Of a stretch of DNA of 64,000 bases, positions 20,996 to 50,638 are shown one piece after another. The translations under genes were made by a program, and so were the position numbers. Source of the stretch: Escherichia coli (GTDB taxonomy: Bacteria; Pseudomonadota; Gammaproteobacteria; Enterobacterales; Enterobacteriaceae); assembly GCF_022846255.1 (NCBI RefSeq), contig NZ_AP025682.1; one strand, 5' to 3'. Every line of letters begins with the position of its first letter. Within the stretch, counting starts at the first letter, position 1. Below the pieces are notes generated by a model. It was not told the origin of the DNA. It made no database searches and saw nothing but the letters and a program-made list of their open reading frames with translations.

Positions 20996-23072
20996 ATCGT
21001 TCCTCGCGCCGCTGCGCGGCGGCAATCTCGGCGTGCCGTTGGTGATCCTGTGTATTCTGGCGATGGTTATTCTGCCGCTGCCGCCTGCGCTGCTGGATAT
21101 TCTGTTCACCTTCAACATTGTGCTGGCGGTGATGGTGCTGCTGGTGGCCGTGTCGGCGAAAAGGCCGCTGGAATTCAGCCTGTTCCCGACCATTTTGCTG
21201 ATCACCACCTTAATGCGTCTGACGCTTAACGTTGCTTCTACGCGCGTGGTGCTGCTACACGGGCATCTCGGCGCGGGCGCGGCGGGTAAGGTGATTGAGT
21301 CGTTTGGTCAGGTGGTGATTGGCGGCAACTTTGTCGTCGGTTTCGTGGTATTTATCATCCTGATGATCATCAACTTTATCGTCGTAACCAAGGGGGCCGA
21401 GCGTATTTCCGAGGTTTCTGCCCGCTTTACCCTGGACGCGATGCCCGGCAAACAGATGGCGATTGACGCCGATCTTAACGCCGGGTTGATCAACCAGACG
21501 CAGGCGCAAACCCGGCGTAAAGATGTCGCCAGCGAGGCCGATTTCTACGGCGCAATGGACGGGGCATCAAAATTTGTGCGCGGGGACGCCATCGCCGGGA
21601 TGATGATTCTGGCGATCAACCTGATCGGCGGCGTCTGTATCGGCATCTTCAAATACAACCTGAGCGCCGACGCCGCCTTCCAGCAATATGTGCTGATGAC
21701 TATCGGCGATGGGCTGGTGGCGCAAATCCCTTCCCTGCTGCTCTCCACCGCGGCGGCGATTATCGTCACCCGCGTCAGCGATAACGGTGATATCGCCCAT
21801 GACGTGCGTAATCAGTTGCTGGCAAGCCCGTCGGTTCTCTACACCGCCACTGGAATTATGTTCGTGCTGGCGGTGGTGCCGGGAATGCCGCATTTCCCGT
21901 TCCTGATGTTCAGCGCCCTGCTTGGTTTTACCGGCTGGCGGATGAGCAAGCGCCCGCAAGCGGCGGAGGCGGAAGAGAAAAGCCTCGAAACGCTAACCCG
22001 TACGATGACAGAAACCAGCGAGCAACAGGTCAGTTGGGAAACTATTCCGCTGATCGAACCTATCAGTTTAAGCCTCGGCTACAAACTGGTGGCGCTGGTG
22101 GATAAAGCGCAGGGCAACCCGCTCACCCAGCGTATTCGCGGCGTACGTCAGGTGATTTCCGACGGCAACGGCGTGCTGCTGCCGGAGATCCGTATTCGGG
22201 AAAACTTCCGTCTCAAGCCCAGCCAGTACGCCATTTTCATCAACGGCATTAAGGCTGATGAAGCGGATATTCCGGCGGATAAACTGATGGCCCTGCCCTC
22301 CAGCGAAACCTACGGCGAGATTGACGGCGTACTGGGGAATGACCCGGCATATGGGATGCCGGTCACCTGGATTCAGCCTGCGCAGAAAGCGAAGGCGCTG
22401 AATATGGGGTATCAGGTGATCGACAGCGCCAGCGTGATTGCCACCCATGTGAACAAGATTGTGCGCAGCTATATTCCTGACCTCTTTAACTATGACGATA
22501 TTACGCAGTTGCATAACCGCCTGTCGTCGATGGCACCGCGACTGGCGGAAGATTTGAGCGCGGCACTCAATTACAGCCAATTGCTGAAAGTGTACCGGGC
22601 GCTGCTGACCGAAGGCGTTTCCCTGCGCGATATCGTCACCATCGCCACCGTGCTGGTCGCCAGTAGTGCGGTGACCAAAGATCATATTCTGCTGGCGGCA
22701 GATGTGCGCCTGGCGCTGCGGCGCAGCATTACCCATCCGTTCGTTCGCAAGCAGGAGCTGACGGTGTATACGCTGAATAATGAGCTGGAAAATCTGCTGA
22801 CCAACGTGGTGAATCAGGCGCAACAGGCCGGCAAAGTGATGCTCGACAGCGTGCCAGTGGACCCGAATATGCTCAACCAGTTCCAGAGTACGATGCCGCA
22901 GGTAAAAGAGCAGATGAAAGCGGCGGGGAAAGATCCGGTGCTGCTGGTGCCTCCGCAGCTGCGCCCTTTGCTGGCGCGCTATGCAAGGTTGTTTGCGCCG
23001 GGGCTGCATGTGCTGTCGTATAACGAAGTGCCGGATGAGTTGGAGTTGAAGATAATGGGGGCGTTGAGTTGA
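20979..23072 (+). CDS. lfhA: Flagellar export gate protein FlhA
   Basis: 697 aa; FHxxK-type N-terminal TM region and large cytoplasmic domain. Confidence 0.9.
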   Translation: MAKTTKSFLAPLRGGNLGVPLVILCILAMVILPLPPALLDILFTFNIVLAVMVLLVAVSAKRPLEFSLFPTILLITTLMRLTLNVASTRVVLLHGHLGAGAAGKVIESFGQVVIGGNFVVGFVVFIILMIINFIVVTKGAERISEVSARFTLDAMPGKQMAIDADLNAGLINQTQAQTRRKDVASEADFYGAMDGASKFVRGDAIAGMMILAINLIGGVCIGIFKYNLSADAAFQQYVLMTIGDGLVAQIPSLLLSTAAAIIVTRVSDNGDIAHDVRNQLLASPSVLYTATGIMFVLAVVPGMPHFPFLMFSALLGFTGWRMSKRPQAAEAEEKSLETLTRTMTETSEQQVSWETIPLIEPISLSLGYKLVALVDKAQGNPLTQRIRGVRQVISDGNGVLLPEIRIRENFRLKPSQYAIFINGIKADEADIPADKLMALPSSETYGEIDGVLGNDPAYGMPVTWIQPAQKAKALNMGYQVIDSASVIATHVNKIVRSYIPDLFNYDDITQLHNRLSSMAPRLAEDLSAALNYSQLLKVYRALLTEGVSLRDIVTIATVLVASSAVTKDHILLAADVRLALRRSITHPFVRKQELTVYTLNNELENLLTNVVNQAQQAGKVMLDSVPVDPNMLNQFQSTMPQVKEQMKAAGKDPVLLVPPQLRPLLARYARLFAPGLHVLSYNEVPDELELKIMGALS

Positions 23073-30552: not shown

Positions 30553-31770
30553 AGAGTCAGGGTAAGACTACGAAAGCCCGCTCCCAGCAAGGACTGACGC
30601 CAGGTAGTTTCTGTCCATGGCTGCTTTTCGCATCTTACGTCTTAACCCTGCCTTGAATACATTATCATTCGTTAAAATATTAATAGCGATGTGCCGTATC
30701 CCTGAAAATAATTCTGCTGCATTTCCTCTTCTTATTTTGCAGTCGTCTTCATTCATTACCACGTCCAGACGCCAGTGCAGCTTATTCTCCACGTGCCAGT
30801 GGTTTCGGATTGCTGTGGCGAACTTCTCTGCGGTTAAATCAGCAGAACTGATATAATATCTGACCGTCATTTCTGGCTCTTTCTTTTGTTCTGCTATTAT
30901 TGACCGAAAGGAGACTGCCACGCATAATTTCTTCAGACCTTTCCATTCAAACATGAAATCAATAAGTTCATCAGGGACATCGCAAACAATGTGAAGACGG
31001 ATTTCTTCTCTGCCGTGACTTTTTTCACTAATTGCGTAACTGTCATGCTCTGGATTATTTAATTCTTTCAGTGGGAATTTTTCCTCAAAGGCTTTATTAA
31101 GCCGCCCCTGATTTCCTTTTACAGCGAATAAATAATCACCGCCCTGTTTTTGTATCTTCTCTGCGATATCTTTCTGGCAACCCATCGCATCAGTTGTGAT
31201 AATTTTTCCTTTAATATCCAACATGTTAAGAAGTTCATGGATAGCTGTGATCTCATTGGATTTCTCATCCGTCCTGATCTGTCCGATGACCAGACTGTGC
31301 ATTGTTGAGAACGCACTAATGACATGAATCGCTCCCCTGCGGCGACTCTTGTCATAAGAATGCCGGAGCGTTTTTCCATCAATTGCAATAACGTCTTTAT
31401 CATCTGAAGAATGGCAGTCACGCATCCAGTTAATAAAGCACTCGTGAAATTTTGCAGGACTGATACAGGATACAACTCTGGCAATGGTATCGTGAACAGG
31501 AATACCATTTTCAAAATCACCATATTGCTTCAAAAAATCGAGATGTGTTTCCCCAAAATCCTCTATATCTTCCCAGCCTTCTGCACCAGAAATAACGGCA
31601 CAAATAGTCAACAGTAGAATACCCGATAATTTATGTTCCACTTTCCAGGCTTGTCTGTAATCGGGGATAATAGAAATATGTTCCATCAATTTTTTAAGTT
31701 CCATTTTGTTCTACTTAATTATGTAAGGAGTATTTGATCATGTATACGCAATAAAAAACAGCTTCAGGTA
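30553..31770 (-). mobile_element. H-repeat (H-rpt) element, ISAs1-family, copy A (intact)
   Basis: 1214-bp unit directly repeated at 31767-32985; encodes a 378-aa DDE transposase-like H-repeat-associated protein. Confidence 0.8.
30568..31704 (-). CDS. H-repeat-associated protein / ISAs1-family transposase
   Basis: 378 aa, [27 protein letters not shown]..., resembles the YhhI/YdcC H-rpt protein family. Confidence 0.85.
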
Positions 31771-33492: not shown

Positions 33493-33864
33493 TTAGAATT
33501 TAGCGCCCGGCTGCCAGAAAAAATAAGAAATAACCCGCCACTGTCCATCTTTATAATGAAAAAAACATGTCAGATTTAAATCCCCCCGCAAATGCCAAAA
33601 CATTTCTTTGATGGGAATATTTCTGAATTCAGTATTCGTTGAGCGATAGGTGTTTTCAATTTCTATATAATACTCACCGACAAATTTATAACGAGGCTTT
33701 ATAAATTCATACGCTGGCTGACCATAGTTATTTAATAGAACATTCTCTTCAACTCCATTATACACACCACTCGCATTCAGATAAGCATGCCCAGGAATAT
33801 CAGACATGCTATTTTTCGCCCCACCCACTATCAAAAAAATTATCACAGCGTATATTAGTTTCAT
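33493..33864 (-). CDS. Small secreted protein, candidate immunity protein for the upstream zincin-like protein
   Basis: N-terminal signal peptide (MKLIYAVIIFLIVGGA); 4-nt overlap with the upstream gene. Confidence 0.5.
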   Translation of the reverse strand: MKLIYAVIIFLIVGGAKNSMSDIPGHAYLNASGVYNGVEENVLLNNYGQPAYEFIKPRYKFVGEYYIEIENTYRSTNTEFRNIPIKEMFWHLRGDLNLTCFFHYKDGQWRVISYFFWQPGAKF

Positions 33865-34601
33865 TTTTTTACGCTTTTCACAAAAAAATTAGAACCCGGA
33901 ACCATTCTATTTAACCGCTCAATGACATTTCTCATATAACGAGAGCGCAGTTCCATACCAATATTCATTAACGCACTGGCGTCCCCGGAGAATGGTGTAG
34001 TTGCTTTATCTGCATCATCACTATAGTATTCATCAGCAAGATATCCAATAATATGCCCAAGCTCGTGAGACAGCCCTATTTGCTCATGGCAAACTTTTGA
34101 TGAGCCAAGACATTTAGCTGCTGCAACTATATCTTTAGAGTCAAGTTCAACGTATCGACTATTCCAGACAATGGAACTCTGTCGAAAACTATTTGGATCA
34201 TCATTATCAATTTTAAACACCACCACATCCCAATACCCATGACGATCAGTCTGAATTATTTCTATTGAGAAAGATAAATCCTTACCATTAAACTTACTGG
34301 CAAACTCAGACTTCCCAGAAACGGATAAAAAAATCTTATTATTCCATGTTTGATTAATGACAAAAATAACTTTCCCATGAAAGGCATTTTTCTCCAAATC
34401 TGTCCAGTCAGTTTTTGCATCCCATCTTTTTATCCAATTATATTTCCATCTCAGCAACAATGAGATTGCACCATTTTCACGGTCAATTCTTAAATCTCCC
34501 CAGGCATCATTGTCCCTGATATATCGTTTATCCAGCATTAAGTCGTCATAAGCATCGTATGCCTGCTGAATAGCTTCATCATGAGAGTCACCCATGTTCA
34601 C
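33861..34601 (-). CDS. Putative zinc metallopeptidase (HExxH zincin), candidate T6SS effector
   Basis: HELGHIIGYLADEY motif; located in the T6SS effector array and paired with a signal-peptide protein. Confidence 0.5.
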   Translation of the reverse strand: MNMGDSHDEAIQQAYDAYDDLMLDKRYIRDNDAWGDLRIDRENGAISLLLRWKYNWIKRWDAKTDWTDLEKNAFHGKVIFVINQTWNNKIFLSVSGKSEFASKFNGKDLSFSIEIIQTDRHGYWDVVVFKIDNDDPNSFRQSSIVWNSRYVELDSKDIVAAAKCLGSSKVCHEQIGLSHELGHIIGYLADEYYSDDADKATTPFSGDASALMNIGMELRSRYMRNVIERLNRMVPGSNFFVKSVKK

Positions 34602-34802
34602 CTCCTTATATTGCTATATATCCAATAAACCTGAAGATGCTTGCTTACCCACCAACGCAGACGGGACCAAGGGTAGCCTGAAGTCAACAGATAGCAGTCA
34701 ACTTGAAGTTCATGGGGATATTTGTTTCCCCATCTACACGTTTATCGTCATATTTTTGTATAGCTATTCTCAGCATTCGTGGGTAGATTATTTTTTTCCA
34801 AC

Positions 34803-34915
34803 CGCAGCGCATCCACATACCGCCCCTCGCTGTTCTGCTGCCACAACCAGCCCTGCCCCTGCTGCGCCTGCGTTAACATTTTTGCTAGCCAGCACGGTCA
34901 CGGCAGGCAATTCCA
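34803..34915 (-). repeat. Degenerate duplicate of the 3' end of tagF
   Basis: ~76 bp near-identical to 35897-35972, then a diverged related stretch; direct orientation. Confidence 0.75.
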
Positions 34916-34924
34916 TGACAGGTA

Positions 34925-35398
34925 CTACTCATCCGTACAACCCAGCCCCCGGCGCTGAACCACTTCACTGGCAAACGTAGCTCCGGTTTTTTTCATTATT
35001 CCTTTTTGTATTTTTTGCAGCGCGGGAAATGAGATTCTCCTGCATGAATCCTCTTCCCATATATCACCAGTTACAGGACTAACTGAAAATAGTCCCCACA
35101 CATCTGTCGCTCCGGCGGAAGGAGAATCATAACCTACCCCAAAACTAAAATACCCAGGATGATACAGGTTACCTTTTTTATCTTTCAGAGAACCGTCAAG
35201 AAAAAACCCAGACAATTCCACATTATATTTTTCATTTTTTAGTGAAAAAACCAATAATGCCTGCGCCTGTATTTCAGTAAGACCTGACTGGTTAACAGTC
35301 GTTAGATCAAACCGCGGCACATTCCTGATAAGAATTTCAGCACAACAATTCACGGACACGACCATGAAAAGCAATACTGATATTAATTTACAGGACAT
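34925..35398 (-). CDS. Secreted protein, candidate immunity protein for the GH73-like effector
   Basis: Signal peptide (MSCKLISVLLFMVVSVNC); overlaps the upstream effector-like gene. Confidence 0.5.
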   Translation of the reverse strand: MSCKLISVLLFMVVSVNCCAEILIRNVPRFDLTTVNQSGLTEIQAQALLVFSLKNEKYNVELSGFFLDGSLKDKKGNLYHPGYFSFGVGYDSPSAGATDVWGLFSVSPVTGDIWEEDSCRRISFPALQKIQKGIMKKTGATFASEVVQRRGLGCTDE

Positions 35399-35853
35399 GT
35401 TATTCTCCGCTTAACCATATTAATCACCCACACTAACTCACTAGCATAACCGGTATGGCCGCCATTACTGTTTTTACCTGAATTAAAACCAGAATCAATC
35501 AATGCCTGCGCAAATTGCTCCGGAGATTTTTTATTTCTGACCGCATTACCAAATCGGATTGCAAAGGACTTTCCGCTAGTTGAAAAAAAGGTATAAGTGG
35601 CAACCCACACTTGATTACTCCCCAGCGGGTGAACCTGTCCTGACTGTAAAGGTGCCGGACCATGCATGGAAAAGTAGTTATTGTATTCTGTCGCGATTCT
35701 ACCCTGCCCGTAAAAGGACTCCTTTGCAGCAAGCCCCAGGATATTTTCCACAGGCACATCAAGTTGCTTAGCGATTAATTCACATTCTTTCAGATATTGC
35801 TGTACAAACCTGACTGCACCAGTGTTATTACAGGCTTTATCATAAGACCCCAT
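35383..35853 (-). CDS. Glucosaminidase (GH73/FlgJ-like) domain protein, candidate T6SS peptidoglycan glycoside hydrolase effector
   Basis: LGLAAKESFYGQGRIATEYNNYFSMHG resembles the FlgJ/GH73 catalytic region; no signal peptide; small (156 aa). Confidence 0.55.
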   Translation of the reverse strand: MGSYDKACNNTGAVRFVQQYLKECELIAKQLDVPVENILGLAAKESFYGQGRIATEYNNYFSMHGPAPLQSGQVHPLGSNQVWVATYTFFSTSGKSFAIRFGNAVRNKKSPEQFAQALIDSGFNSGKNSNGGHTGYASELVWVINMVKRRITCPVN

Positions 35854-35880: not shown

Positions 35881-36651
35881 TTAATGCGGCCGGATATCCA
35901 GCCGCAACGCATCCACATACCGCCCCTCGCTGTTCTGCTGCCAGAACCAGCCCTGCCCCTGCTGCGCCTGCGTCAGCATTTTGTCCGGCCAGCCCGGCCA
36001 CGGCAGGTGGCGCACACCGGGCAGTTCCACTACCGGCACGTCCGGCAGGCCGGTGAGTTCCCGGCTACGCTGCGGTACACGTCGTAAGCCGCGTAGCCAC
36101 TGCGCCCAGCGCGGCCCCGGTCGCCACATCGCCCAGAGCTGGTCTGTCTGCTCCGCCAGTCGACCGCAGCGTTCTGTCTGTGGTGAGACATGAGCTGCCG
36201 TCAACTGCGCCAGCCAGTACAGCCAGCCCTGTGTGTCATCCAGGCTCTCTTCCAGCCATTCCCGCCCGACACGCTGGTAAATCACCAGTGGCCACGGCCT
36301 GCCCGTACTGTCACGCGAGGCGGTCAGGACCCCGGTCAGCCACTCATCGCGCCCGCCAATGGGGAGAAATCCCGGCGACAGCACAAAACTCCACGGCAAT
36401 GGGTGGTGCTCCGGTAGTGCCGTTTTCTCACGTGGTGACAGGTGCATCCAGCCGTCATTTGTTCCGGCCTTCGCAGCATCCGTTCCTTCCGGCAGAACAA
36501 TATGCCGTCCCTGTCCCAGCCACGTTTGCTGGTTCAGCCACGCCTGCCACACCTGCCCTTCGTTCGCGCTCACTCGCCAGCGCACATAGTCCCGCTGGTC
36601 CGGCAGTCTGCCGAACATCGCCGGGGCCGATATCTCTGCCCGGCGCATCAC
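35881..36651 (-). CDS. tagF: T6SS-associated protein TagF (DUF2094 family)
   Basis: N-terminal FGRLPDQRDYVRWR resembles the TagF GKLPxxGDFVxR signature; Trp-rich; follows tssM as in SPI-6-type clusters. Confidence 0.6.
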   Translation of the reverse strand: MMRRAEISAPAMFGRLPDQRDYVRWRVSANEGQVWQAWLNQQTWLGQGRHIVLPEGTDAAKAGTNDGWMHLSPREKTALPEHHPLPWSFVLSPGFLPIGGRDEWLTGVLTASRDSTGRPWPLVIYQRVGREWLEESLDDTQGWLYWLAQLTAAHVSPQTERCGRLAEQTDQLWAMWRPGPRWAQWLRGLRRVPQRSRELTGLPDVPVVELPGVRHLPWPGWPDKMLTQAQQGQGWFWQQNSEGRYVDALRLDIRPH

Positions 36652-36836: not shown

Positions 36837-37313
36837 TTAATTCAGTTCCCAGAACCAGATTTCCTTGCAGCTAAAATAGCAATGTGAATGACATATAGCA
36901 CCTGTGGTAGAAGGCTCAATAAGATCTATATGACCGCCACCGTAACCCGTAATTTTCCAGAAAAAGACCACTCCTCTTTTATTACTGGTGTCTGTTTTAA
37001 ATTTTTCTGAGTCACACCAGATAACTGGTCTTCCAAAAACATCAGCTCGGGAAAGCTGATCTGCCAGTAATTTCGCACCGGTTTCTATTTTCTTCCCTTT
37101 CCAGTCACCACTTTTGATCGTCAGTCGCCCGTTAAAGCTGACGCCTGATTTAATCAGCGCCAGACTCATACGTGTGGCACAGGTATTTACATAACCAGCA
37201 TTTTGCTGTTGCAGTGCTTCATAGTTATAACCCACTTCACTGTACAAAACATCACCATCAATCTGAACTGATGAGTAATGGTTTTTTTTAAGTGTGAAAA
37301 ATGAAGGTTTCAT
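36837..37313 (-). CDS. Tae4-like type VI amidase effector (papain-like Cys/His peptidoglycan amidase)
   Basis: AGYVNTCATRMSLAL (Cys) and GGGHIDLIEP (His) resemble the Tae4 catalytic motifs as I recall them; 158 aa, no signal peptide. Confidence 0.55.
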   Translation of the reverse strand: MKPSFFTLKKNHYSSVQIDGDVLYSEVGYNYEALQQQNAGYVNTCATRMSLALIKSGVSFNGRLTIKSGDWKGKKIETGAKLLADQLSRADVFGRPVIWCDSEKFKTDTSNKRGVVFFWKITGYGGGHIDLIEPSTTGAICHSHCYFSCKEIWFWELN

Positions 37314-38005
37314 TTATTATTTCCTTTATCACAGGAGTGTTTACTTAGTGCCTCAATAATAATATTTGCAGCCCGTTCATTCAGTTTATCTGACGTTTTT
37401 TTTCTGAAATACCAGTAAATAATCTCATCCAGTGTAACTGTTTTAATCGTTTTATAATCGCACCATGTTTTTCTTTCCGTGGCATCTTCTATACCCAAAA
37501 GATAGATTTTCGCATTAAGCCTATCCTGCCTGTTATCTGACTGCCAGAAGCGGAAAAAATCATCTCCGTTCAGATCGAACGCGCCAGAGGTCAGGTGTGA
37601 AACAGATGAATGCCGGGGAGATTTTTTTTCCGGTGATGCCATATCCGGGCAGGGAAACAGCCTGACCATCGCTTGTTCAATCAGAGTTGAAGCTCGCATA
37701 TTCATATCGTTAACCGACTGCTGATTAAGATATGTCAGTACCGATGAATAAAGTTCTATTTCATTAATCTTATTATATCCACACCAGGTTTTACTTTCTG
37801 TCGCATCACTCACACCAAGGACATACATCAGAACATTTTCTTTTTCCTGTGACGTTCCACGAGCATAAAATGACAAAAATTCCTGCGCACTGAGATTAAT
37901 ATAATCGGGGTCAATAGTTCCTGTGTTTTTTCTGATATCAGCAAAAACATTTCCTGACATGGCATATAACAAAAAAATAATAAAAAAACGCGTATATTGT
38001 TGCAT
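37310..38005 (-). CDS. Secreted tandem-repeat protein, candidate immunity protein (two ~100-aa repeats each with paired Cys)
   Basis: Signal peptide; internal duplication (VLGVSDATESKTWCGYNKI... / LLGIEDATERKTWCDYKTI...). Confidence 0.5.
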   Translation of the reverse strand: MQQYTRFFIIFLLYAMSGNVFADIRKNTGTIDPDYINLSAQEFLSFYARGTSQEKENVLMYVLGVSDATESKTWCGYNKINEIELYSSVLTYLNQQSVNDMNMRASTLIEQAMVRLFPCPDMASPEKKSPRHSSVSHLTSGAFDLNGDDFFRFWQSDNRQDRLNAKIYLLGIEDATERKTWCDYKTIKTVTLDEIIYWYFRKKTSDKLNERAANIIIEALSKHSCDKGNNK

Positions 38006-38251: not shown

Positions 38252-41200
38252 TCACAGCGCTCGCTCCGGGCAGGCGAAGCGTTGTAATAGTCCGCGATCC
38301 ACTGGGTCAAAATCCCGTCCGGCGGTGATTTCCAGTATCACCCGCCGCCCGTCAAAGCTGTACTCCACCTGCTGTGTTCCCCGTACCGCCGTTTCTTGCG
38401 CTTTTCCCGCATCCAGCAGGTGAAACAGCGCCCACGGTCCATTAGTCAGCAGCGTCGAGGTGTCCTGGCGGATGCGCGGGCTGGCGGTTATTTCCGCCAT
38501 TGAGCCGTTGCGCGGACCCGGCCAGTTCACTTTCAGCGGCCTGACCGGGCCGTGAGCGTAACGCAGTACCTGGCCGTCAATGTCAATCACCAGTTCGGTG
38601 ATGGCCGGGTCCATATCCACGACGCGGACCTGCATCGCCCATGAGAACTTTTTCCCTCCGTCGCCGTTAAAAAACACGCTGCGGATCTGTTTCGCCTCCT
38701 GAAACGGCGTCAGGTCTGGACCCTGTAAGGTCATGTTGCCTTCGGTCGGTTTGTAGCGCCACGGGTTGCTGGCGGTATCCGCCAGTGGGGCCAGTTGCTT
38801 CGTCCAGAAGGCATCCAGCACGCCGCCGCTGGCAAAGATACGGTTAAAATCGTCCGCGCTGACCTCCTGCGGGCTGTCGGTGAAGGGGTAGCGCCCGTCG
38901 ATGGCGTCGCGGCACTCATCACCGATCACCGCCTCCATCTGCGCGTTCAGCACTTCACCGGTGCCGGCGTTGATTTTTCGCGTTCCCTGCTGCGTGAGAT
39001 CCAGCAGAATATTTTTCAGCGGCGCGGGCAGTTTTGCCGCCTCCAGTTGCAGTTTATCCGCCGCAGAAATGCGCCCCGGCAGAGTGCTCGCAGCCAGCGC
39101 ACTGTCGGCAATGGTGAGCTGGGTGTAGTACTCATTGAGCATCGTCAGCAGCGAATTTAATTGCGGCACGCCGCCGCCCTGCCCGCTGTCCGTCTGCCCG
39201 GAAACCACTTCCCGCAGGGCGGCGAAACGGTCATCCACCAGTGATTTTTCCAGCCGCTCTTCCGGGTGAATGTCCTGCAACAGCTTCGCCGTCTGCACCG
39301 CTTTTCCCGCATTGCCGGAGAGCCGGTCCTGCGCGCGCTGGGCCATCTGCTTTTGTCTGGCCTGCGCATTCAGCGGCGGCACCAGCGTGGTCTGCTCCAC
39401 CACCGCTTTACTCAGGCGCATCAGCGGGGAATCCGGCGAGGCCAGAGTACGCAGCACCTGAAGGTCATACGCTAGTCCAGGGCTACCGTCCTCCCCGGCG
39501 CTGTTGATGCTGTGAATGCTTGCCAGAAAATCCTGCCATCGGCGAGCATATTCAGCCAGGTACAGACGACGTACCTCACGGGTAACCGGGAGTTCCTGCC
39601 CCGGCAACTGGCTCATCACAATATCAGTCGTTTTTTTTTGCGCACTTTCCCGGCCCATCACCCAGGCGTCGTCCGCTGATGCGGCGGCGACAAACTCCGA
39701 CAGCCGTTTGTCGAACAGTTCCCGGTAGCCTTCGCGGGTGAAGATGCCGGGCACGCCCCTGTCCAGCGGCGCGCCATCCGTGCGGACAAAAACTGTTCCC
39801 GCATCCGCGCCCACAGCGCGAACCAGCGAAAACTCCTGCGGTGCTTCGCTCTCCATGGAAGCCAGGGCTCGAGTGTAGATACGCTCAGTGCTGGTATGGC
39901 CGTCAAGGAAGGCCCGCGCCTGGCGGATCAGCCCCTCATCTTTTTCCCAGGGCGAATGCACCACGCGGCTGCCGTCAAACAGGGCGTCAATATGCTCCAG
40001 CACGGCTGCGCGACCGCCAAACTCCGCTACGCTGTCGCGGTTGTCCAGATCGTTCAGCACCCAGGCGTGGATCTCCGCCGCGTTGTATTTGTCCTCGTGG
40101 TCCTTATCGAGGTTCAGCAGCAGATAAACATGCAGGGCGTCATAGGCGGCTTTGCTGTCCTGACGCGCAATCGCATCTGAAAGCACGTATTCCATTCGTT
40201 TCACCAGCGGAGGGAGCAGTAGCTGGTCCAGCAGGCGGTCATACAGGGATGCGACACTCTCCATCACCGGCGGGACGCTGTAAAGACCATAACGCCAGGC
40301 CAGCGGCGGCGAGTCCGGGTCCAGCCCCGGCCAGGCAGAGAGCGCCCGCGCCTGGTTCAGCAGGGCCGGAACAGGCTGCATAGCAGGTTTTCCGGTATAG
40401 GCTTTGACATCACCATCCAGTTGGGTCGTCCGGCTGGCGATTTCATTCAGATAACCGCTGTTACCCTGCTGGCTACCCTGCATTCCCTGCCACAACCAGA
40501 AAGCCAGCGCCAATACCAGCAGATGCCCGCCGGTACGCAGCAGGCGATAACGCCAGGCCCATTGAAGATTCGGCTCCACCAGGTGCGCTTCGCGGAAGAT
40601 AAACTGCGTCAGTAGATCGTGCAGGAAATAGCTGCGGTTGCCGTCCGGCAGGGTATGGGATGGGGAATCCGCCTTCCCTTTGATCGCCCGGACAAAACGC
40701 TGCCAGATGCCCGTCTGATCGGCCACCGCGTCTGCCTGCGCCTGCGCGGCACTGGTGAAAAATACGCCGCGCAGGGTGTTGTTAAGCTGGGTAGCATCAA
40801 ATTTTGAATCGAGGAAAATCTGTTCAATAGCTTCCAGCAGCGGCGCACCCAGCGCGGCAAATTCACGCGGGAAGCGGTAGAGCCGCTGACGGCTTTTAAG
40901 GTCATATTCTTCCTGCAACCGGGTATCCAGCCCCTGATCCAGCCGCTGTGTCAGGTTTGCCAGTTCCCGGCCACAGAGCGCATGCAGCGACTGCGGATCG
41001 CTGGCGTGACGCCTGCGGCTGTAAGGCAGGGTGAAGCCCCAGACCTGGGCTCGCAGGTGACTGGTCAACCCACGGAAATACTCCGTAAAGCCCGGCAGCA
41101 GATCCATCTTGGTGACAACCAGATAGACCGGAAAACGAATGCCCAGCGTCTCCCGCAGTTCCGCCAGCCGCGCACGCAGAGCTGCACAGGCAGCCAGCCG

Positions 41201-42118
41201 TTCCGCCGGGGACTGCGCGGTCAGATCCGCCACGTTCAGCGTCAGGATCACGCCGTTGAGCGGTGCGCCGGGGCGGTGTTTACGCAGCAGTCCCAGAAAC
41301 CCCTGCCACTCCCCGGCGTTGCGCTGGGTCGCGCTGATTTCGCCACCGTCATCGTGGCGAGCATAGCGCCCGGCGGTGTCAATAAGCACTGCTTCGTTGG
41401 TAAACCACCAGTCGCAGTGCAGCGTGCCGCCGCCCGGCACGGTGAGAATATGCGCGGTTTGCTCCATCTGCTCCGCCAGCGGAAACTGTAGCCCGGTGTT
41501 AAGCAGCGCGGTGGTTTTACCATCGCCGGGGCTGCCGATAACCATAAACCACGGCAGCTCGTACAGAAAACGCTTTCCTTCCAGGACTTTTCGCCAGCCA
41601 GGAAGATCCACACGCAGTTGTTTCAGTTGCCGGATGGCGCGGTTGACAATATGGCTGACGGTACGCAGGTCGGCTTTAATTTCCCCCTCCACCGGTACGT
41701 CTTCCCCACGCGGATGCAGGAAACGGCGCAGCAGTTGTTCATCCAGACGCAGCGCCCGCCACAGCCGGTACAGGCCATACAGCGCATAAGTCAGCAGGAT
41801 CAGACCGATAAGCGTCAGACGCAGCCACAGCGGCGCAAATGGATGAACATCACCGAGGGACAGCAGGGGTGAAACAAAACCGATGACCAGGCACAGAACC
41901 GTCACGCCAATGATGCTCATCGACCAGTTAACCAGCCACAGTGCGAGGAACATCAGTAACAGAACGATGGTGACTACCCGACTTCCCACAGACGCGAGCG
42001 GATGCACGGTGTCAAACGCCACCAGCGGCCCGATAAACCAGACCAGCAGCGCCAGTACCGCCACGCCGACAACAGCCAGCGCGCGGCGGGAAAACAGCAG
42101 ACTGAGAAATTTTTGCAT
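38252..42118 (-). CDS. tssM: T6SS membrane complex protein TssM (IcmF family)
   Basis: 1288 aa; three N-terminal TM helices, Walker A GSPGDGKTT, IcmF-like periplasmic region. Confidence 0.9.
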   Translation of the reverse strand: MQKFLSLLFSRRALAVVGVAVLALLVWFIGPLVAFDTVHPLASVGSRVVTIVLLLMFLALWLVNWSMSIIGVTVLCLVIGFVSPLLSLGDVHPFAPLWLRLTLIGLILLTYALYGLYRLWRALRLDEQLLRRFLHPRGEDVPVEGEIKADLRTVSHIVNRAIRQLKQLRVDLPGWRKVLEGKRFLYELPWFMVIGSPGDGKTTALLNTGLQFPLAEQMEQTAHILTVPGGGTLHCDWWFTNEAVLIDTAGRYARHDDGGEISATQRNAGEWQGFLGLLRKHRPGAPLNGVILTLNVADLTAQSPAERLAACAALRARLAELRETLGIRFPVYLVVTKMDLLPGFTEYFRGLTSHLRAQVWGFTLPYSRRRHASDPQSLHALCGRELANLTQRLDQGLDTRLQEEYDLKSRQRLYRFPREFAALGAPLLEAIEQIFLDSKFDATQLNNTLRGVFFTSAAQAQADAVADQTGIWQRFVRAIKGKADSPSHTLPDGNRSYFLHDLLTQFIFREAHLVEPNLQWAWRYRLLRTGGHLLVLALAFWLWQGMQGSQQGNSGYLNEIASRTTQLDGDVKAYTGKPAMQPVPALLNQARALSAWPGLDPDSPPLAWRYGLYSVPPVMESVASLYDRLLDQLLLPPLVKRMEYVLSDAIARQDSKAAYDALHVYLLLNLDKDHEDKYNAAEIHAWVLNDLDNRDSVAEFGGRAAVLEHIDALFDGSRVVHSPWEKDEGLIRQARAFLDGHTSTERIYTRALASMESEAPQEFSLVRAVGADAGTVFVRTDGAPLDRGVPGIFTREGYRELFDKRLSEFVAAASADDAWVMGRESAQKKTTDIVMSQLPGQELPVTREVRRLYLAEYARRWQDFLASIHSINSAGEDGSPGLAYDLQVLRTLASPDSPLMRLSKAVVEQTTLVPPLNAQARQKQMAQRAQDRLSGNAGKAVQTAKLLQDIHPEERLEKSLVDDRFAALREVVSGQTDSGQGGGVPQLNSLLTMLNEYYTQLTIADSALAASTLPGRISAADKLQLEAAKLPAPLKNILLDLTQQGTRKINAGTGEVLNAQMEAVIGDECRDAIDGRYPFTDSPQEVSADDFNRIFASGGVLDAFWTKQLAPLADTASNPWRYKPTEGNMTLQGPDLTPFQEAKQIRSVFFNGDGGKKFSWAMQVRVVDMDPAITELVIDIDGQVLRYAHGPVRPLKVNWPGPRNGSMAEITASPRIRQDTSTLLTNGPWALFHLLDAGKAQETAVRGTQQVEYSFDGRRVILEITAGRDFDPVDRGLLQRFACPERAL

Positions 42119-42445: not shown

Positions 42446-42901
42446 TCAAAATTCTCTGGATAGAATAATATAGCCATTGAATCTTACGGAACACTCATTT
42501 TCATTAATAAGGCCGGATGCAATAAAAACATCTTTCCCTCTGTCATTGTTAATATAGGTATATTTTGCCACAATAGACTTGGCATGATTTTCATAGTAGC
42601 TATCAAAATACGATTTTTCATCTAACATTGCCTTCTTATTTCTGGCTTTGTCCTTCTCATAATCAATCTTAGCCAGAGACTCTGCATAAAACTTAGACAC
42701 AGGAGAAACATCAAGAACTTCTACCCTTGTTTTATCTCTTAAAATAGTAGAAGAATTTATATTCAAATCACTTTTCATTGCATCAAATAACGACAACTCT
42801 ATTGAGGCTCCAACCGTAGCGCAACCATCATTTTGTGCATATGAAATTGCAGGTATGCCAGCTAACAGGCAGATTATTACCTTGAACATATTAGTCCTCA
42901 A
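42446..42901 (-). CDS. Secreted protein, candidate immunity protein for the L,D-transpeptidase-like effector
   Basis: Signal peptide (MFKVIICLLAGIPAISYA); overlaps the upstream effector gene. Confidence 0.5.
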   Translation of the reverse strand: MRTNMFKVIICLLAGIPAISYAQNDGCATVGASIELSLFDAMKSDLNINSSTILRDKTRVEVLDVSPVSKFYAESLAKIDYEKDKARNKKAMLDEKSYFDSYYENHAKSIVAKYTYINNDRGKDVFIASGLINENECSVRFNGYIILSREF

Positions 42902-43259
42902 CCACTAATATTTTATCAGTACTGGCAGCAATAACCTTGCGATAAGGTAAATCCAGAATTATACAGCCATCAGAGGCTTCTCCTGGATGGGCTGAACTCT
43001 CTCCGTGTATCATGAAACCGTCACGCCCGCACATTTGATTTTCGGGGTAAGGCGTGAGCCTCATCGTCCATGCTCTTGTTCTGGCATGAAAAAATGCAAG
43101 TCCAATTGTATATGTACCTCTTGGCAATGGTCCCTTATCTCTTACACACTCATTAACAGAGTCATCTTTAAAACCCGGTCTGCCAGAATATCTGGCATTG
43201 AACTGATAGCTACCATTTAAATAAAATGAACGTGCATTAATTTTGTATACCCAAGGCAT
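42891..43259 (-). CDS. YkuD/L,D-transpeptidase-fold protein, Tlde1-like candidate T6SS effector
   Basis: FMIHGESSAHPGEASDGCIIL matches the YkuD catalytic H...SxGC motif; between tssL and tssM. Confidence 0.6.
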   Translation of the reverse strand: MPWVYKINARSFYLNGSYQFNARYSGRPGFKDDSVNECVRDKGPLPRGTYTIGLAFFHARTRAWTMRLTPYPENQMCGRDGFMIHGESSAHPGEASDGCIILDLPYRKVIAASTDKILVVED

Positions 43260-43350: not shown

Positions 43351-44667
43351 TCACTCCACCACCAGAATTTCCACCCGACGGTTCTGCGCCCGTCCGGTTT
43401 TAGTGCGGTTATCGGTCACCGGTACGGTATCTCCTTTCCCGACAACCCGGATCCGGCGGGCCGGAATACCATCGGACGTCAGCAGTGAAGCCACTTCCGC
43501 CGCCCGTTTTTCCGACAATACCTGGTTGGACGGGAATTCAGCGGAGTGGATCGGCTGGCTGTCCGTGTGGCCGGTCACCGTCACCGCGCCCCCCACACGC
43601 GCAATCTCACGCGCGGCCTTGTCAATCACCGGGCGCAGCGCATCATTCACGGTTTTCTGCCCCGGTATAAACATCGTATCGCCACGAAAAATTACACGGC
43701 TGTGATGGTCATCTTCCTCCACCGTCAGCAGGCCACGGGCGATTTCGTTCGCCAGCAGGATTTTCAACCGCAGTTTATGCACCGGAACGGGTGGCGGAGG
43801 AAGATTTTTACCAATGGCGTCGATACGCTGTTGTACGGTTTCGGTGGCGAGGTTCATCCGGTGGCTGTAAAGGCCAAACAGCGTCAGCATCACCAGCAGG
43901 GCGATTCCGGCGCTCAGCCAGACCGGCACCCGGCGCATCCGCCGCATTCGCCCACTGACGGCACCGGCAAAACCCGGCGAGAGCGTCGGCGTGATCGGAT
44001 CGCGACGCTGGACCAGTTGAGTCAGCAGTTGCTGGCGGATATCGTCCAGTTGTTTACGCCCGTCAGGCCGTACACTGTAGCGGCCTTCAAAACCCAGTCC
44101 CAGAATGTGGTAAATGATTTCCAGTACATCGCTGTGCTCCTGGAAGCTGGCGGCCAGACGCCCGATTATCTGAAACAGCTTGATGCCGCCTTCACTTTCG
44201 CCATGAAAAGTCACCAGCAGGCTCTTCCCGGCCCAGACACCGCGTCGCCCCCAGACGGTGTTGTTGGCAGCTTCATCCAGCGCCGTGCACACGCAGTAAC
44301 GTACCGCCAGCACATGTTCGCGGCGCAGGTTTGCCTGGTCGCACAGCGTCTGATACCGGCGGACTTCACGCTCCAGTAGGGCGCGATAATGTTCGACAAA
44401 ACCAGGGGAAAGTTCACGGGGCATTTGCGCCAGCGCGCATAACAGAGGGCTGGCCGCCGCCAGAAGAGGATTCACAGCAGCAGTGATCTCAGCCAAGCGG
44501 AGCTTCAAATCTGGCCCGTCTTCAACCACCATTTTTATATCTTCCCTGCGAAGGCTGTCCTGGACGAGCGTATCGTAACCGTCATTATCAGGCGACCTTG
44601 TTCCCCTCATTGAAGGCTGTAATTGCAGGGTATTCACCGCAGGTTGCGTCAGAATATCGTCGGTCAT
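43351..44667 (-). CDS. tssL: T6SS membrane complex protein TssL (DotU) with C-terminal OmpA-like peptidoglycan-binding domain
   Basis: 438 aa; DotU-like N-terminal domain, TM helix, OmpA-like C-terminus (TDSQP...NRRVEI). Confidence 0.85.
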   Translation of the reverse strand: MTDDILTQPAVNTLQLQPSMRGTRSPDNDGYDTLVQDSLRREDIKMVVEDGPDLKLRLAEITAAVNPLLAAASPLLCALAQMPRELSPGFVEHYRALLEREVRRYQTLCDQANLRREHVLAVRYCVCTALDEAANNTVWGRRGVWAGKSLLVTFHGESEGGIKLFQIIGRLAASFQEHSDVLEIIYHILGLGFEGRYSVRPDGRKQLDDIRQQLLTQLVQRRDPITPTLSPGFAGAVSGRMRRMRRVPVWLSAGIALLVMLTLFGLYSHRMNLATETVQQRIDAIGKNLPPPPVPVHKLRLKILLANEIARGLLTVEEDDHHSRVIFRGDTMFIPGQKTVNDALRPVIDKAAREIARVGGAVTVTGHTDSQPIHSAEFPSNQVLSEKRAAEVASLLTSDGIPARRIRVVGKGDTVPVTDNRTKTGRAQNRRVEILVVE

Positions 44668-46007
44668 TTATCGCGAACTCCCCACAGCTCCAGCTCCAGC
44701 CCTGGAAACTCTCCGGCGGTATGCATTGCCATGCCACCATAGCGGGCGATATGTTCCCACAACACGCCGTCGCGGCGGATGTCGTAATAGATGTAACCGG
44801 ACTGGAACGGGATCTGACGCGGTGGCACTGGCAGCACCTGTAGAACAAGACCAGGAAGGTGCGAGCGAATCAGTTCCGGCAGGCGTTCTGATGGCCCTAT
44901 TTTGGTCTGAGCCGAAAAATGTTGTAGTAAGGTGTCGGCGGACATCTGTGCCTTCACCGCCAATACTAACGAGCTGAAATCTGACAGTTCGGTAGGTTCA
45001 ACCACCGCATTGAGAATACCGTAAGTTCCCTCTTCCAGAGGGATTCGCTGCGCCCCACGTATTAGCACAGCATTCAGCAGATACTGAACCTCGTCCACCA
45101 CCGATTTCAGCCCGGCATAGGGCGTCAGGTGCTTATATTCTTTATATTCTTCCGGACGACGTGTTTGCGGACGCACGTAGGTAGAGAGTTCTCCGGCCAG
45201 TGCGCAGAGGTTACGATAGAGTACTTCAGGCGATAGCGGCGTTTTCGACATATGGATCAATAAGGGGCCGAAACGATTAAGAACTTGCAGAAGCAGGTAA
45301 TCCGACACTTCCGCCGCTTCATGACCGTGTTTGTCGCTCCCCGTCAATCGTTCCGCCAGCGAATCTGCACGCATTTTTATCAGATCGTTAATCCACGACA
45401 GCCAGGTACATATCAGCGTACTGGCCTGGTAGTTCGCCACTGGCGGGATCAACTCTTTGTCTATATCGACCCGACCATCGGGATGCAGCGCCGTGATGCG
45501 CGTCAGCGGCAGGCCGATCCACGCGTCTGTCACCGCCTTTTCCGGTAACAGTCGCAAGCGCAGGTGGCTAAGTTGCAGCAGTTGCGCGCCTCGCCCCAGC
45601 GAATTGGCATCACGGATTTCACTTTCATGTACCGAAAAACGTGCCAGTGATTCAGGGTTATTGTCGAAACTGGTTTCTTCACTGTTCGGCGTACGTATTG
45701 GCACAGCCAGATAAATCAACTGGTTAAGATGTTCTGGAAGGATGGTCAGAGGCGGCGGGAGTGGTGTATGACCCGGCGCATTAAAAGGTGTACCGTCAGC
45801 AAATACCCCGGAAGCCTTCGTAAGTACCAGTTTTCCGATGTTCAGCGCCTCACTACCAATACCATACTCATTGAAGCCCCAGTAAAAAGGTGAAAGAGGC
45901 AAACTGCGATAATGAATGACATGTTCCAGATAGCGTTCCTGCTGCTGAAACATCTGTGGCAACAAAAATTGTCCTTCACTCCAGACCACCCGGTTATTCC
46001 AACTCAT
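44664..46007 (-). CDS. tssK: T6SS baseplate protein TssK
   Basis: 447 aa; N-terminus MSWNNRVVWSEGQFLLPQMFQQQERY typical of TssK. Confidence 0.9.
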   Translation of the reverse strand: MSWNNRVVWSEGQFLLPQMFQQQERYLEHVIHYRSLPLSPFYWGFNEYGIGSEALNIGKLVLTKASGVFADGTPFNAPGHTPLPPPLTILPEHLNQLIYLAVPIRTPNSEETSFDNNPESLARFSVHESEIRDANSLGRGAQLLQLSHLRLRLLPEKAVTDAWIGLPLTRITALHPDGRVDIDKELIPPVANYQASTLICTWLSWINDLIKMRADSLAERLTGSDKHGHEAAEVSDYLLLQVLNRFGPLLIHMSKTPLSPEVLYRNLCALAGELSTYVRPQTRRPEEYKEYKHLTPYAGLKSVVDEVQYLLNAVLIRGAQRIPLEEGTYGILNAVVEPTELSDFSSLVLAVKAQMSADTLLQHFSAQTKIGPSERLPELIRSHLPGLVLQVLPVPPRQIPFQSGYIYYDIRRDGVLWEHIARYGGMAMHTAGEFPGLELELWGVRDK

Positions 46008-46010
46008 AAT

Positions 46011-46565
46011 TTACTCATCCCGTTCTTTAATCACTATGGCGCTTTGCTCTATGCCAGCATCCAGTTCGACTTTTTTCTTTGGCATAAAGCGGCTGTACCA
46101 ACTTTTTTCCGGTGGATCAGGAATTTTATATGTAGCCCGCCAGACCGATTTTCCCAGATTGCGGTATCCGGCGAGGATCCCCAGCGTGGTAGTTTCCTTA
46201 TTGAGGGCGCGGCGTAATTTTTTCTCCTCGCCCGGACGCAGGATAAAGCTGTCGCGGTGGAGTAAATCATCGGCAAGAACAGCCTTGTCATTGTCCTGAA
46301 GGGACCACCAGTCCGCCGCCGTGAAAGCTGCATCAATTTTCAGTTCATAAACGCGTATCTCTATGGGCGCGGCTTTTTTCTGATTGTCAGGATTCACCTT
46401 ATCGGAAGCCTTAATCACCAGATCGAGTCTTTGTGACATCAGGTCCGGCACGTCGTCGCTGTCAATGCTGCACCCGGAAAGCAGGAAGACAAAAGACAAA
46501 GCTACCGCACATAACCACCCACCGGGGTTACGCCATTTATTCACTGTAATTTCCTTTAAAATCAA
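46011..46565 (-). CDS. tssJ: T6SS outer-membrane lipoprotein TssJ
   Basis: Lipobox LLSGC; size and position between hcp and tssK. Confidence 0.8.
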   Translation of the reverse strand: MILKEITVNKWRNPGGWLCAVALSFVFLLSGCSIDSDDVPDLMSQRLDLVIKASDKVNPDNQKKAAPIEIRVYELKIDAAFTAADWWSLQDNDKAVLADDLLHRDSFILRPGEEKKLRRALNKETTTLGILAGYRNLGKSVWRATYKIPDPPEKSWYSRFMPKKKVELDAGIEQSAIVIKERDE

Positions 46566-46611
46566 ATAATAAAAACCGGCCAGGCTATATACCTGGCCGG
46601 GAAAATGTTGC

Positions 46612-47103
46612 TTAAATTTCTTTGTTAGCTTTGAAATCGTAACCTGCCGTGATAGTGCCGCCGCTGCCGCCCTGCTGGTTCTGCACCACGTATTCCTGCT
46701 TCACGGTGCTGAAAGATAGTTCGACTCTCTCGCGGGAGGCGATCTCACCCTCCTTACTACCACTGGGGGAAACAACAGCCACAATCAGGTCAGTGAAGGT
46801 ATATTTGAGGTATTCCAGCGGATTGCCGCCTGCTTTGCGCATGACAAGGATGGACTTCGGAATATGCTTACCAGAGGCGCAGTATTTGAACAGGTTCGGG
46901 CTAGCGCGATCGATGTAATGTTCAAACTCCAGGTTAGTCACGGAGACTTTGCCGGATCCCAGACCGCTACCTGCGTGCATGGTGGACTCCTGGTGGATAT
47001 TCCAGCGCCAGCTCAGCACCTCAATTTCATTTTTATGTTTGTCATCCATTGACTCGCCGTCAATGCCGTCAATTTTCAGAAAAATGTCATAAGCCATTTT
47101 CAT
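46612..47103 (-). CDS. hcp: T6SS tube protein Hcp (TssD)
   Basis: 163 aa; N-terminus MAYDIFLKIDGIDGES... and overall Hcp pattern. Confidence 0.9.
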   Translation of the reverse strand: MKMAYDIFLKIDGIDGESMDDKHKNEIEVLSWRWNIHQESTMHAGSGLGSGKVSVTNLEFEHYIDRASPNLFKYCASGKHIPKSILVMRKAGGNPLEYLKYTFTDLIVAVVSPSGSKEGEIASRERVELSFSTVKQEYVVQNQQGGSGGTITAGYDFKANKEI

Positions 47104-47276
47104 TTCCTTATTAAGAATTACTTAAAATAATCCCTGGTTTATCTTCGCATATGAATTCAGGTAAACCATGGCCGTACAGAACCCCCTCTCCTTAATTTCA
47201 GAAGAATAGAAGGCTGTATAATTTCCGGTAATGAGATACCGGCACGTCATTAATTCACAAAATGAATGTATTACCT

Positions 47277-47729
47277 CTATTTACATGTCACAGATACCGA
47301 TGACTCTCCTGGTACCCGCTGCCCCGGCAAAGAAGATGCCTGGCACTGTGTCGCCAATGCAGGGACCGGTTGTGATAACCAAACCTGTCCATGGTTATAA
47401 ATACAGGAAACCCAGTAACGTTCACTATTCTGATTACTGGCCATTGTGGTATCCCATATTTGCCTGGTTTCACCCTTTATTGTCTCTGTCTCTGGTTTTA
47501 GATCCACCCGATTTTCAGGTTTTCCCTGCGACATCCCTACCCCGTCCAACCACAGACGGGGTTCATAGCGGGAAGATCTCTGCCACGATGCAGATATATC
47601 TGGCTCCAGTACTGTTGTTGAGGATTTTATATTGATAAACACGGGGCAACTGACTTCCCACGCAGTAACAAATTGTGAATAAAACAACATAAAACCCAAC
47701 AACAGAGAAAAAATAAAACGTGTCCCCAT
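47277..47729 (-). CDS. Secreted Cys-containing protein, candidate immunity protein
   Basis: Signal peptide (MGTRFIFSLLLGFMLFYSQFVTA); follows a small effector-like ORF. Confidence 0.45.
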   Translation of the reverse strand: MGTRFIFSLLLGFMLFYSQFVTAWEVSCPVFINIKSSTTVLEPDISASWQRSSRYEPRLWLDGVGMSQGKPENRVDLKPETETIKGETRQIWDTTMASNQNSERYWVSCIYNHGQVWLSQPVPALATQCQASSLPGQRVPGESSVSVTCK

Positions 47730-47741
47730 TGAATCTATCCT

Positions 47742-48149: not shown

Positions 48150-48199
48150 ATATCCCCCAGAGTATTACCCGGCATCATTCATTAAAATATTCATAAAAA

Positions 48200-50636: not shown

Positions 50637-50638
50637 AC

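Follow-up and report, generated by a model that had tools for sequence, protein, structure and literature searches.

A Tge2-Tgi2 family gene pair bounded by tagF 3' repeats in an Escherichia coli type VI secretion cluster

Introduction

The Tge2 family was reportedly defined and structurally solved in 2013 by Whitney et al. (J Biol Chem 288:26616), in Pseudomonas protegens Pf-5, where Tgi2 is said to neutralise Tge2 by active-site occlusion. The complex of the P. protegens proteins, Tge2PP and Tgi2PP, is PDB entry 4KT3 and has a stoichiometry of one effector to one immunity protein (1E:1I; PMC4832377). As described in PMC11114119, which cites Whitney 2013, Tge2PP is exported in a T6SS-dependent manner, is inactivated by Tgi2 and confers an advantage in competition against P. 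putida. Tge2/Tgi2 has also been entered for variable region 2 (VR2) of Salmonella SPI-6, in 150-240 serotypes (PMC10469887; PMC12288458), as a predicted N-acetylglucosaminidase module (PMC10469887); the Tge families are all termed muramidases in the review PMC4832377. Variable regions VR1 and VR2 look like hot-spots yet are without mobile-element signatures (PMC10469887).

Here we describe a pair of small genes in a 64,000-nucleotide stretch of the E. coli chromosome, referred to below as the window. From the sequence alone the pair had been predicted to encode a peptidoglycan-targeting type VI secretion system (T6SS) effector and its immunity protein, Tge/Tgi-like. The analysis supports that reading, and the label turned out to be literally correct: both proteins are full-length homologues of the chains of 4KT3, and the partner matches the T6SS_Tgi2PP family. 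The pair is therefore an already known, textbook Tge2/Tgi2 member and not a new candidate. Since the family has been known since 2013, the SPI-6 pair is in PMC10469887 and RefSeq names are in place, the finding is not new; it has little weight as a discovery and is useful as annotation of the T6SS cluster. Only the repeat-bounded architecture of the cassette and the allele polymorphism are mildly new here.

Results

Two overlapping minus-strand genes

Positions 34925-35853 are filled exactly by two minus-strand ORFs, as originally predicted. The features of the pair are as follows.

35383..35853, minus strand: tge2, predicted T6SS peptidoglycan glycoside hydrolase effector, GH73-like, 156 aa, without a recognisable signal peptide
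35719..35721, minus strand: codon of Glu45, predicted catalytic general acid, invariant in a 34-member alignment
34925..35398, minus strand: tgi2, predicted periplasmic immunity protein, 157 aa
35383-35398, minus strand: overlap of the tge2 stop and the tgi2 start, 16 nt, ATGTCCTGTAAATTAA, from coordinates and sequence
35339..35398, minus strand: predicted Tgi2 signal peptide, about residues 1-20, from Kyte-Doolittle hydropathy

Each gene has a Shine-Dalgarno sequence, AAGGAG located 9 nt 5' of the ATG for tge2 and GGAG located 6 nt 5' of the ATG for tgi2, and the 16-nt overlap may couple translation of tgi2 to that of tge2. The local G+C content is approximately 0.38-0.43 at the pair versus 0.60-0.66 in the flanking tagF and tssM genes, which points to accessory DNA. 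A promoter and terminator scan of positions 34500-38400 gave no excess over shuffled sequence (4 versus 5.5 and 3 versus 3.8, respectively), and an Rfam scan at the gathering threshold found no RNA family in 32500-38500. The pair therefore most likely lies on the tssM-tagF transcript, and tge2-tgi2 are probably co-transcribed with those genes. Two plus-strand ORFs that overlap the pair (34594..34980 and 35580..35771) were set aside as antisense artefacts, given the strong homologues of the ORFs on the minus strand.

Tge2 belongs to the GH73 glucosaminidases

The Tge2 sequence includes LGLAAKESFYGQG and YNNYFSMHG, and it was this region that had first suggested a FlgJ-like catalytic domain. The suggestion was borne out by a match to the Pfam Glucosaminidase family PF01832 (GH73), with an i-Evalue of 2.2e-7 over model positions 7-121 (115/123), which is the sole Pfam domain found in the protein. 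In a phmmer search of all PDB sequences Tge2 matched 4KT3_A with E 3.1e-45, residues 6-153 of the query aligning on residues 30-177 of the chain with 53% identity over 148 aa, and a family profile built from 34 sequences matched the same chain at E 6e-73. A database search found 45 Tge2 homologues, around 150 aa in length, whose sources are E. coli, Salmonella, Enterobacter and metagenomes; PF01832 is present in 42 of these 45, which is all of the 42 that have precomputed Pfam domains. The protein is 98.7% identical to E. coli RefSeq WP_089522471.1, annotated as a "glucosaminidase domain-containing protein".

The fold agrees with this assignment. An AlphaFold2 model of Tge2 (pLDDT 93.9, pTM 0.89) was compared with the PDB by Foldseek, and the top match was again 4KT3_A (E 1e-14, TM 0.86/0.95), followed by FlgJ from Sphingomonas and from Salmonella (FlgJ 2ZYC has a TM of 0.72), Auto of Listeria, TM0633 of Thermotoga and AtlA of Enterococcus, so that the structural matches after 4KT3_A are all GH73 enzymes. 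The lysozyme-like fold expected of a GH73 protein is thus recovered by superposition of the model.

Glu45 is invariant in the alignment of 34 Tge2 homologues, as are E36, N58-N59 and other positions. The profile made from these 34 sequences reaches FlgJ and places Glu45 opposite the Glu of 2ZYC (aalETgwG) that is replaced by Ala in the mutant E185A (3K3T). Because Glu45 is both invariant and aligned to FlgJ Glu185, it is predicted to be the general acid, and the predicted activity of Tge2 is that of an N-acetylglucosaminidase, on the strength of the modelled fold and family.

No NCBIfam family was above threshold for either Tge2 or Tgi2; the below-threshold matches of Tge2 were FlgJ (19.7 bits) and GsmA. 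FlgJ (TIGR02541) was rejected as an identification, insofar as 19.7 bits compares with a cut-off of 193, the match covers residues 11-59 only, and the protein has 156 aa and no rod-binding N-domain.

The N-terminus of Tge2 is hydrophilic, with a best Kyte-Doolittle 11-residue mean of 0.57 in the first 40 aa. As judged from this sequence Tge2 has neither a Sec nor a Tat signal, in agreement with the original prediction of an enzyme that lacks an export signal.

Tgi2 is a probably exported partner of the Tgi2PP family

The overlapping downstream gene had been expected to encode a protein with a signal peptide, and it does so by its hydropathy profile, which peaks at residues 6-16 with an 11-residue Kyte-Doolittle mean of 2.91. 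The N-terminus reads MSCKLISVLLFMVVSVNCCAEIL and has the n-h-c layout of a signal: Lys4, 12 hydrophobic residues and then C-C-A|E. Cleavage after CCA would be plausible for signal peptidase I under the -3/-1 rule, and a canonical lipobox is not present in the N-terminus as read from the sequence. Residues 39-143 of Tgi2 match the Pfam family T6SS_Tgi2PP (PF21576; positions 1-99/102, E 1.4e-13, 51.5 bits), and the protein matches PDB 4KT3_B over nearly its full length (E 4.7e-36, 47% identity). It is 100% identical to RefSeq WP_103253942.1, a "Tgi2PP family T6SS immunity protein", and its C-terminal 25 residues are identical across all of the alleles compared, Salmonella included.

The pair lies in a type VI secretion cluster

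The window carries the E. coli chromosomal genes yafL-dpaA-yafJ-lpcA-fadE-ivy-yafV, followed by a T6SS cluster. NCBIfam equivalogs were found above cut-off for TssM, TssL, TssK, TssJ, TssC, TssB, TssH, TssE, TssF and TssG, and Hcp (by a subfamily model), TagK and TagF were also above their NCBIfam cut-offs. TssA scored under its NCBIfam cut-off, 149.5 versus 160.85. All T6SS core genes are thus detected in the cluster, with TssA below cut-off, and an intact vgrG is absent. The location of the pair within a T6SS locus is thereby confirmed. The principal genes are listed here.

35881..36651, minus strand: tagF, T6SS accessory gene (NCBIfam TIGR03373, E 1.2e-10, above cut-off)
38252..42118, minus strand: tssM, membrane complex, start of the operon segment that includes the pair (TIGR03348, 1064 bits)
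46612..47103, minus strand: hcp/tssD (TIGR03344, E 1e-16)
43351..60351: rest of the core, tssL, tssK, tssJ, hcp, tssC, tssB, tssH, tagK, tagJ-like, tssE, tssF, tssG and tssA (NCBIfam)

The tge2-tgi2 pair begins 27 nt past the tagF stop, and tagF is annotated as TagF in the compared loci L001-L003. Taking the family assignment and the location together, we give a probability of about 0.9 that the two genes are an effector-immunity module of the Tge2-Tgi2 kind, belonging to a type VI cluster that is SPI-6-like (E. coli T6SS-1); nothing contradicts the family membership of the pair.

Four more cell-wall effector-immunity pairs are found in the cluster besides Tge2-Tgi2.

47742..48149: Tae2 family protein (6WIN_A, E 4e-32)
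47277..47729: partner of the Tae2 family protein, with a signal peptide
42891..43259: Tlde1-domain protein, 122 aa (Pfam PF10908, E 2e-12)
42446..42901: partner of the Tlde1-domain protein
36837..37313: Ssp1/Tae4.1-like amidase (4BI3, E 2e-57)
37310..38005: double Rap1a/Tai4 protein, partner of the Tae4.1-like amidase
33861..34601: HExxH candidate effector, 246 aa (weak M64/M57 matches in Pfam, nothing else)
33493..33864: partner of the HExxH candidate

A PDB sequence search with the 122-aa Tlde1-domain protein gave no match. The HExxH protein resembles the 243-aa "M64/Reprolysin_4" candidates of Salmonella VR2 in its size, its position and its weak M64 match. PADLOC had no match among six neighbouring small proteins, and no link to phage defence is therefore indicated. 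For annotation of the cluster the gain is five cell-wall-targeting pairs (Tae2, Tlde1-domain, Tae4.1/Ssp1-like amidase, Tge2 and the HExxH candidate), among which Tge2 alone would target the glycan backbone.

The cassette is flanked by duplicated tagF 3' ends

A repeat search found that the 1.1-kb tge2-tgi2 cassette is flanked by two copies of the 3' end of tagF, identical at 100 of 111 positions.

35897..36007: direct repeat copy 1, the 3' end of the intact tagF
34797..34907: direct repeat copy 2, an orphan tagF 3' remnant right after tgi2

Copy 2 carries a partial TagF pseudogene annotation in locus L001. E. coli AR_0077 shares this backbone (99.6% identity) and lacks exactly the 1100-bp cassette. 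The empty-site allele (AR_0077; L003) has a single tagF 3' end, which is an exact chimera of both window copies: its stop-proximal half is that of the remnant in the window and its upstream half is that of the intact tagF copy. Such an exact chimera at the empty site is the signature of a cassette gained or lost when the two repeats recombine. Further copies occur in related loci; Salmonella has three tagF 3' copies, at the end of tagF, after tgi2 and after the next pair, and E. coli loci have a third short tagF 3' copy farther downstream.

From these observations we propose, at what we would call even odds, that in E. coli and Salmonella the VR2 of SPI-6-type clusters expands and contracts by recombination at duplicated tagF 3' ends, each incoming module of tagF 3' end, effector and immunity gene displacing older ones downstream and leaving one decaying remnant per pair, and that the window is a unique mosaic with one of at least two Tge2/Tgi2 types that do not cross-protect. 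If this is true, recombination at tagF 3' ends would be the missing mechanism for the VR2 hot-spot.

The cassette is rare and polymorphic in E. coli

Of 5426 complete E. coli genomes, 8 carry the full tge2-tgi2 cassette, and it is missing from most E. coli genomes that have the same T6SS cluster, including the one with the 99.6%-identical backbone; it is an accessory element. The combination of Tae4 and Tge2 pairs seen in the window was found in no complete E. coli genome. E. coli has two or more allele types: between the window and GF4-3, Tge2 is 61% identical and Tgi2 57%, versus 94% for TagF. Patchy presence, an empty site and divergent alleles are typical of polymorphic toxin-immunity pairs.

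Loss of the spike genes and present-day use of the pair

An ISEc1 insertion has cost the cluster of this strain its vgrG, its dcrB and its PAAR-Rhs region. What survives of VgrG is a fragment of aa 1-146, at 33032-33468, which abuts ISEc1; tblastn across the 64 kb found no PAAR, Rhs or DcrB. The junction between the VgrG fragment and ISEc1 was found in 0 of 5426 complete E. coli genomes. Since the window has no intact vgrG, PAAR or Rhs gene, firing needs a spike that is encoded elsewhere in the genome, and the weapon may be idle or may rely on such a spike. Private changes are also seen in the pair itself. Compared with otherwise 99.6%-identical E. coli alleles, Tge2 has two non-synonymous changes, S89F and G142W, the first at a Ser conserved at 90% or more in the Tge2 family, and Tgi2 has a single synonymous change.

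These observations bear on the one rival reading that has weight, which concerns the present-day use of the pair and not its identity: Tge2 and Tgi2 would be genuine and unused, the cluster having been disarmed, with the pair either a relic or one in which Tgi2 is retained only as a defence against neighbours armed with Tge2 while Tge2 decays. The truncation of vgrG to a 146-aa fragment at ISEc1 together with the missing PAAR, Rhs and DcrB, the private junction, and the distribution of changes between Tge2 (two non-synonymous, one of them at a nearly invariant Ser) and Tgi2 (one synonymous) all favour it. Against this, the tge2 and tgi2 ORFs are intact and have good ribosome-binding sites, the remaining core genes are intact and accompanied by the four other effector-immunity pairs, and three substitutions are too few for a statistical claim of relaxed selection. 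Moreover, extra vgrG islands outside the main T6SS cluster are common in E. coli, and these would escape a 64-kb window. We consider disarmament unlikely on balance, at a level that still deserves to be kept in mind.

Discussion

Tge2, a cell-wall hydrolase by family whose gene adjoins tssM and tagF, could be read as a self-directed enzyme that opens the producer's own wall for assembly of the T6SS membrane complex rather than as a toxin. Yet a protein without a signal peptide could not reach its own periplasm by Sec, its partner is homologous to an immunity protein that blocks the active site, the cassette is dispensable, being missing from most E. coli genomes with the same cluster, and the pair is highly polymorphic; we judge a self-directed role very improbable. 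That a flagellar FlgJ-type, phage or autolysin glucosaminidase lies here by chance is barely credible: the sub-threshold FlgJ and GsmA matches in NCBIfam, the rank of FlgJ as nearest non-T6SS structure and a Flag-2-type flhA homologue at 20979..23072 speak for it, against an identity of 53% to Tge2PP versus about 21% to FlgJ and no flanking phage genes.

What was observed for the allele of the window is the layout of the genes, their homology, the fold, the conserved Glu, the signal peptide and the link to a T6SS; how the effector-immunity module would work can be outlined from the characterised family member and general T6SS knowledge. [quoted passage not shown] Once injected into the periplasm of a Gram-negative neighbour, the GH73-type lysozyme-like domain would cut the glycan strands of peptidoglycan with Glu45 as general acid, weakening the sacculus so that the target is lysed or arrested. 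Tgi2 would be exported by Sec into the periplasm of the producer, where it would bind Tge2 arriving from sister cells 1:1 and block the active site.

Comparison with known systems

The closest characterised system is Tge2PP-Tgi2PP of P. protegens Pf-5, with homology along the whole of both proteins (53% and 47% identity). The two systems have in common their size, fold and catalytic Glu, a signal-less effector with an exported immunity protein, adjacent genes and linkage to a T6SS. They differ in that the pair of the window is from another genus and another type of T6SS cluster and is known from sequence and a model; in addition, the signal of the window Tgi2 appears to be of the signal-peptidase-I type, whereas the 4KT3 immunity chain is titled "putative lipoprotein".

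The genomic organization is most similar to that of Salmonella enterica SPI-6 (locus L004), which has the same order tssM-tagF-tge2-tgi2, followed by the 243-aa protein and its partner and then by vgrG-dcrB-PAAR-Rhs. Both loci have tge2-tgi2 followed by the HExxH candidate pair (243 aa in Salmonella, 246 aa in the window), and both have tagF 3' repeats after the cassettes. The window departs from Salmonella SPI-6 in the Tae4.1/Rap1a pair that separates tssM from tagF and in its lack of the vgrG-Rhs region. The window allele is 61% (Tge2) and 57% (Tgi2) identical to that of L004, and the E. coli GF4-3 allele is nearer to it, at 77% and 78%, respectively.

With the GH73 N-acetylglucosaminidases (FlgJ C-domain 2ZYC/5DN4, Auto 3FI7, TM0633 4QDN and AtlA 7QFU) Tge2 shares the lysozyme-like fold, at TM 0.6-0.72, the ES-x-G and NN-x-F motifs and the position of the catalytic Glu. 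Identity to these enzymes is only about 15-23%, and Tge2 differs from them in having no carrier or targeting domains and, by analogy with its family, in its probable delivery by the T6SS into other cells and its dedicated immunity protein. The P. aeruginosa system Tge1 (Tse3)-Tgi1 (Tsi3) follows the same plan, a glycoside hydrolase toxin of the T6SS matched by an immunity protein in the periplasm; Tge1, a muramidase, belongs to another sequence family, and it gave no match in the PDB sequence, Foldseek or profile searches made with Tge2.

The arrangement of the cassette is like the sequential displacement described for Vibrio cholerae (PMC5361080), in that new modules appear to come in beside a conserved anchor gene and remnants to be pushed downstream. 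In the window the remnants are decayed tagF 3' ends, and what is duplicated as the anchor is one end of tagF, an accessory structural gene, instead of an effector or immunity gene. Unlike the orphan immunity genes reported for V. cholerae, the modules of the window are kept as whole effector-immunity pairs.

Repeats of the tagF 3’ end flank the Tge2/Tgi2 cassette

The T6SS toxin and immunity genes tge2 and tgi2 are bracketed by two copies of the 3’ end of tagF, the accessory gene immediately upstream of tge2, which match each other at 100 of 111 positions. In the empty-site allele of E. coli AR_0077 precisely the 1100-bp cassette unit is missing, and the tagF end that is left is an exact chimera of both window copies. 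More copies, decayed, lie behind successive effector-immunity pairs in Salmonella and in other E. coli loci.

Copies of the tagF 3’ end
34797-34907 and 35897-36007 (window): copies bracketing the Tge2/Tgi2 cassette
4740-4850 (L003, E. coli AR_0077): the one tagF 3’ end of the empty-site allele
5818-5947, 6956-7014 and 8689-8719 (L004, Salmonella enterica SPI-6 locus): Salmonella copies

Together, the flanking copies, the chimeric empty site and the decayed copies elsewhere suggest that recombination at the tagF 3’ repeats leads to both gain and loss of the cassette.

Allelic variation in Tge2 and Tgi2

At one E. coli site Tge2/Tgi2 occurs as at least two divergent allele types (L007, the locus with the GF4-3 type, 2630-3546, versus window 34925-35853), with amino acid identities of 61% for Tge2 and 57% for Tgi2 in a backbone with 94% identity in TagF. 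The last 25 residues of Tgi2 (the GIMKKTGATFASEVVQRRGLGCTDE region) are the same in every allele compared, Salmonella included; this tail is either conserved for its function or serves as an anchor for recombination.

Compared with E. coli alleles that are otherwise 99.6% identical, tge2 carries two private non-synonymous changes, S89F (codon 89, window 35588) and G142W (codon 142, window 35430); conservation at Ser89 in the Tge2 family is at least 90%. The single change in tgi2 (window 35078) is synonymous. Possible explanations for this pattern are relaxed selection and a toxin that has become inactive.

Loss of spike genes

No intact vgrG, PAAR-Rhs or dcrB is present in the window’s T6SS cluster. 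All that remains of vgrG encodes the N-terminal part of VgrG (aa 1-146, window 33032-33468), with a frameshift, and is cut off by ISEc1 (ISAs1 family, window 30558-33075), which lies adjacent to yafV. This junction was found in 0 of 5426 complete E. coli genomes.

ISEc1 copies in the window
30568..31704: intact, 378 aa
31782..32918: disrupted

Upstream of yafL, window 20979-23072 encodes a 697-aa FlhA-type export-gate protein. Judging by its translation, the gene appears to belong to a second (Flag-2-type) flagellar locus; it has no relation to the Tge2/Tgi2 pair.

Other predicted effector-immunity pairs in the cluster

Predicted pairs in the window
33493-34601: HELGH protein and partner; weak Pfam M64/M57 matches
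36837-38005: Ssp1/Tae4.1-like amidase and partner, between tssM and tagF
42446-43259: Tlde1-domain protein and partner, in a low-GC island between tssL and tssM
47277-48149: Tae2-family amidase and partner, between tssC and hcp

The Ssp1/Tae4.1-like amidase (158 aa; 4BI3 match, E 2e-57) follows a 231-aa protein with a signal peptide, in which a PDB search matched residues 60-121 to Tai4 and 132-228 to Rap1a, consistent with a partner built of two Rap1a/Tai4-type domains. This pair is missing in the Tge2-cassette E. coli strains L001 and L002 and found in AR_0077-type strains. The Tlde1-domain protein (122 aa; PF10908, E 2e-12; motif HGES...SDGC) and its 151-aa signal-peptide partner are probably an L,D-transpeptidase-type effector-immunity pair.

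The Tae2-family amidase (135 aa; 6WIN_A match, E 4e-32) and its partner, a 150-aa protein with a signal peptide, occupy the tssC/hcp gap, which in Salmonella is variable region 1 (VR1). The gene for the 246-aa HELGH protein overlaps that of its 123-aa signal-peptide partner, and the two form a putative effector pair that resembles the 243-aa ‘M64 peptidase/Reprolysin_4’ candidate pairs described from Salmonella SPI-6 variable region 2 (VR2): size and position are comparable, and so is the weak similarity to M64.
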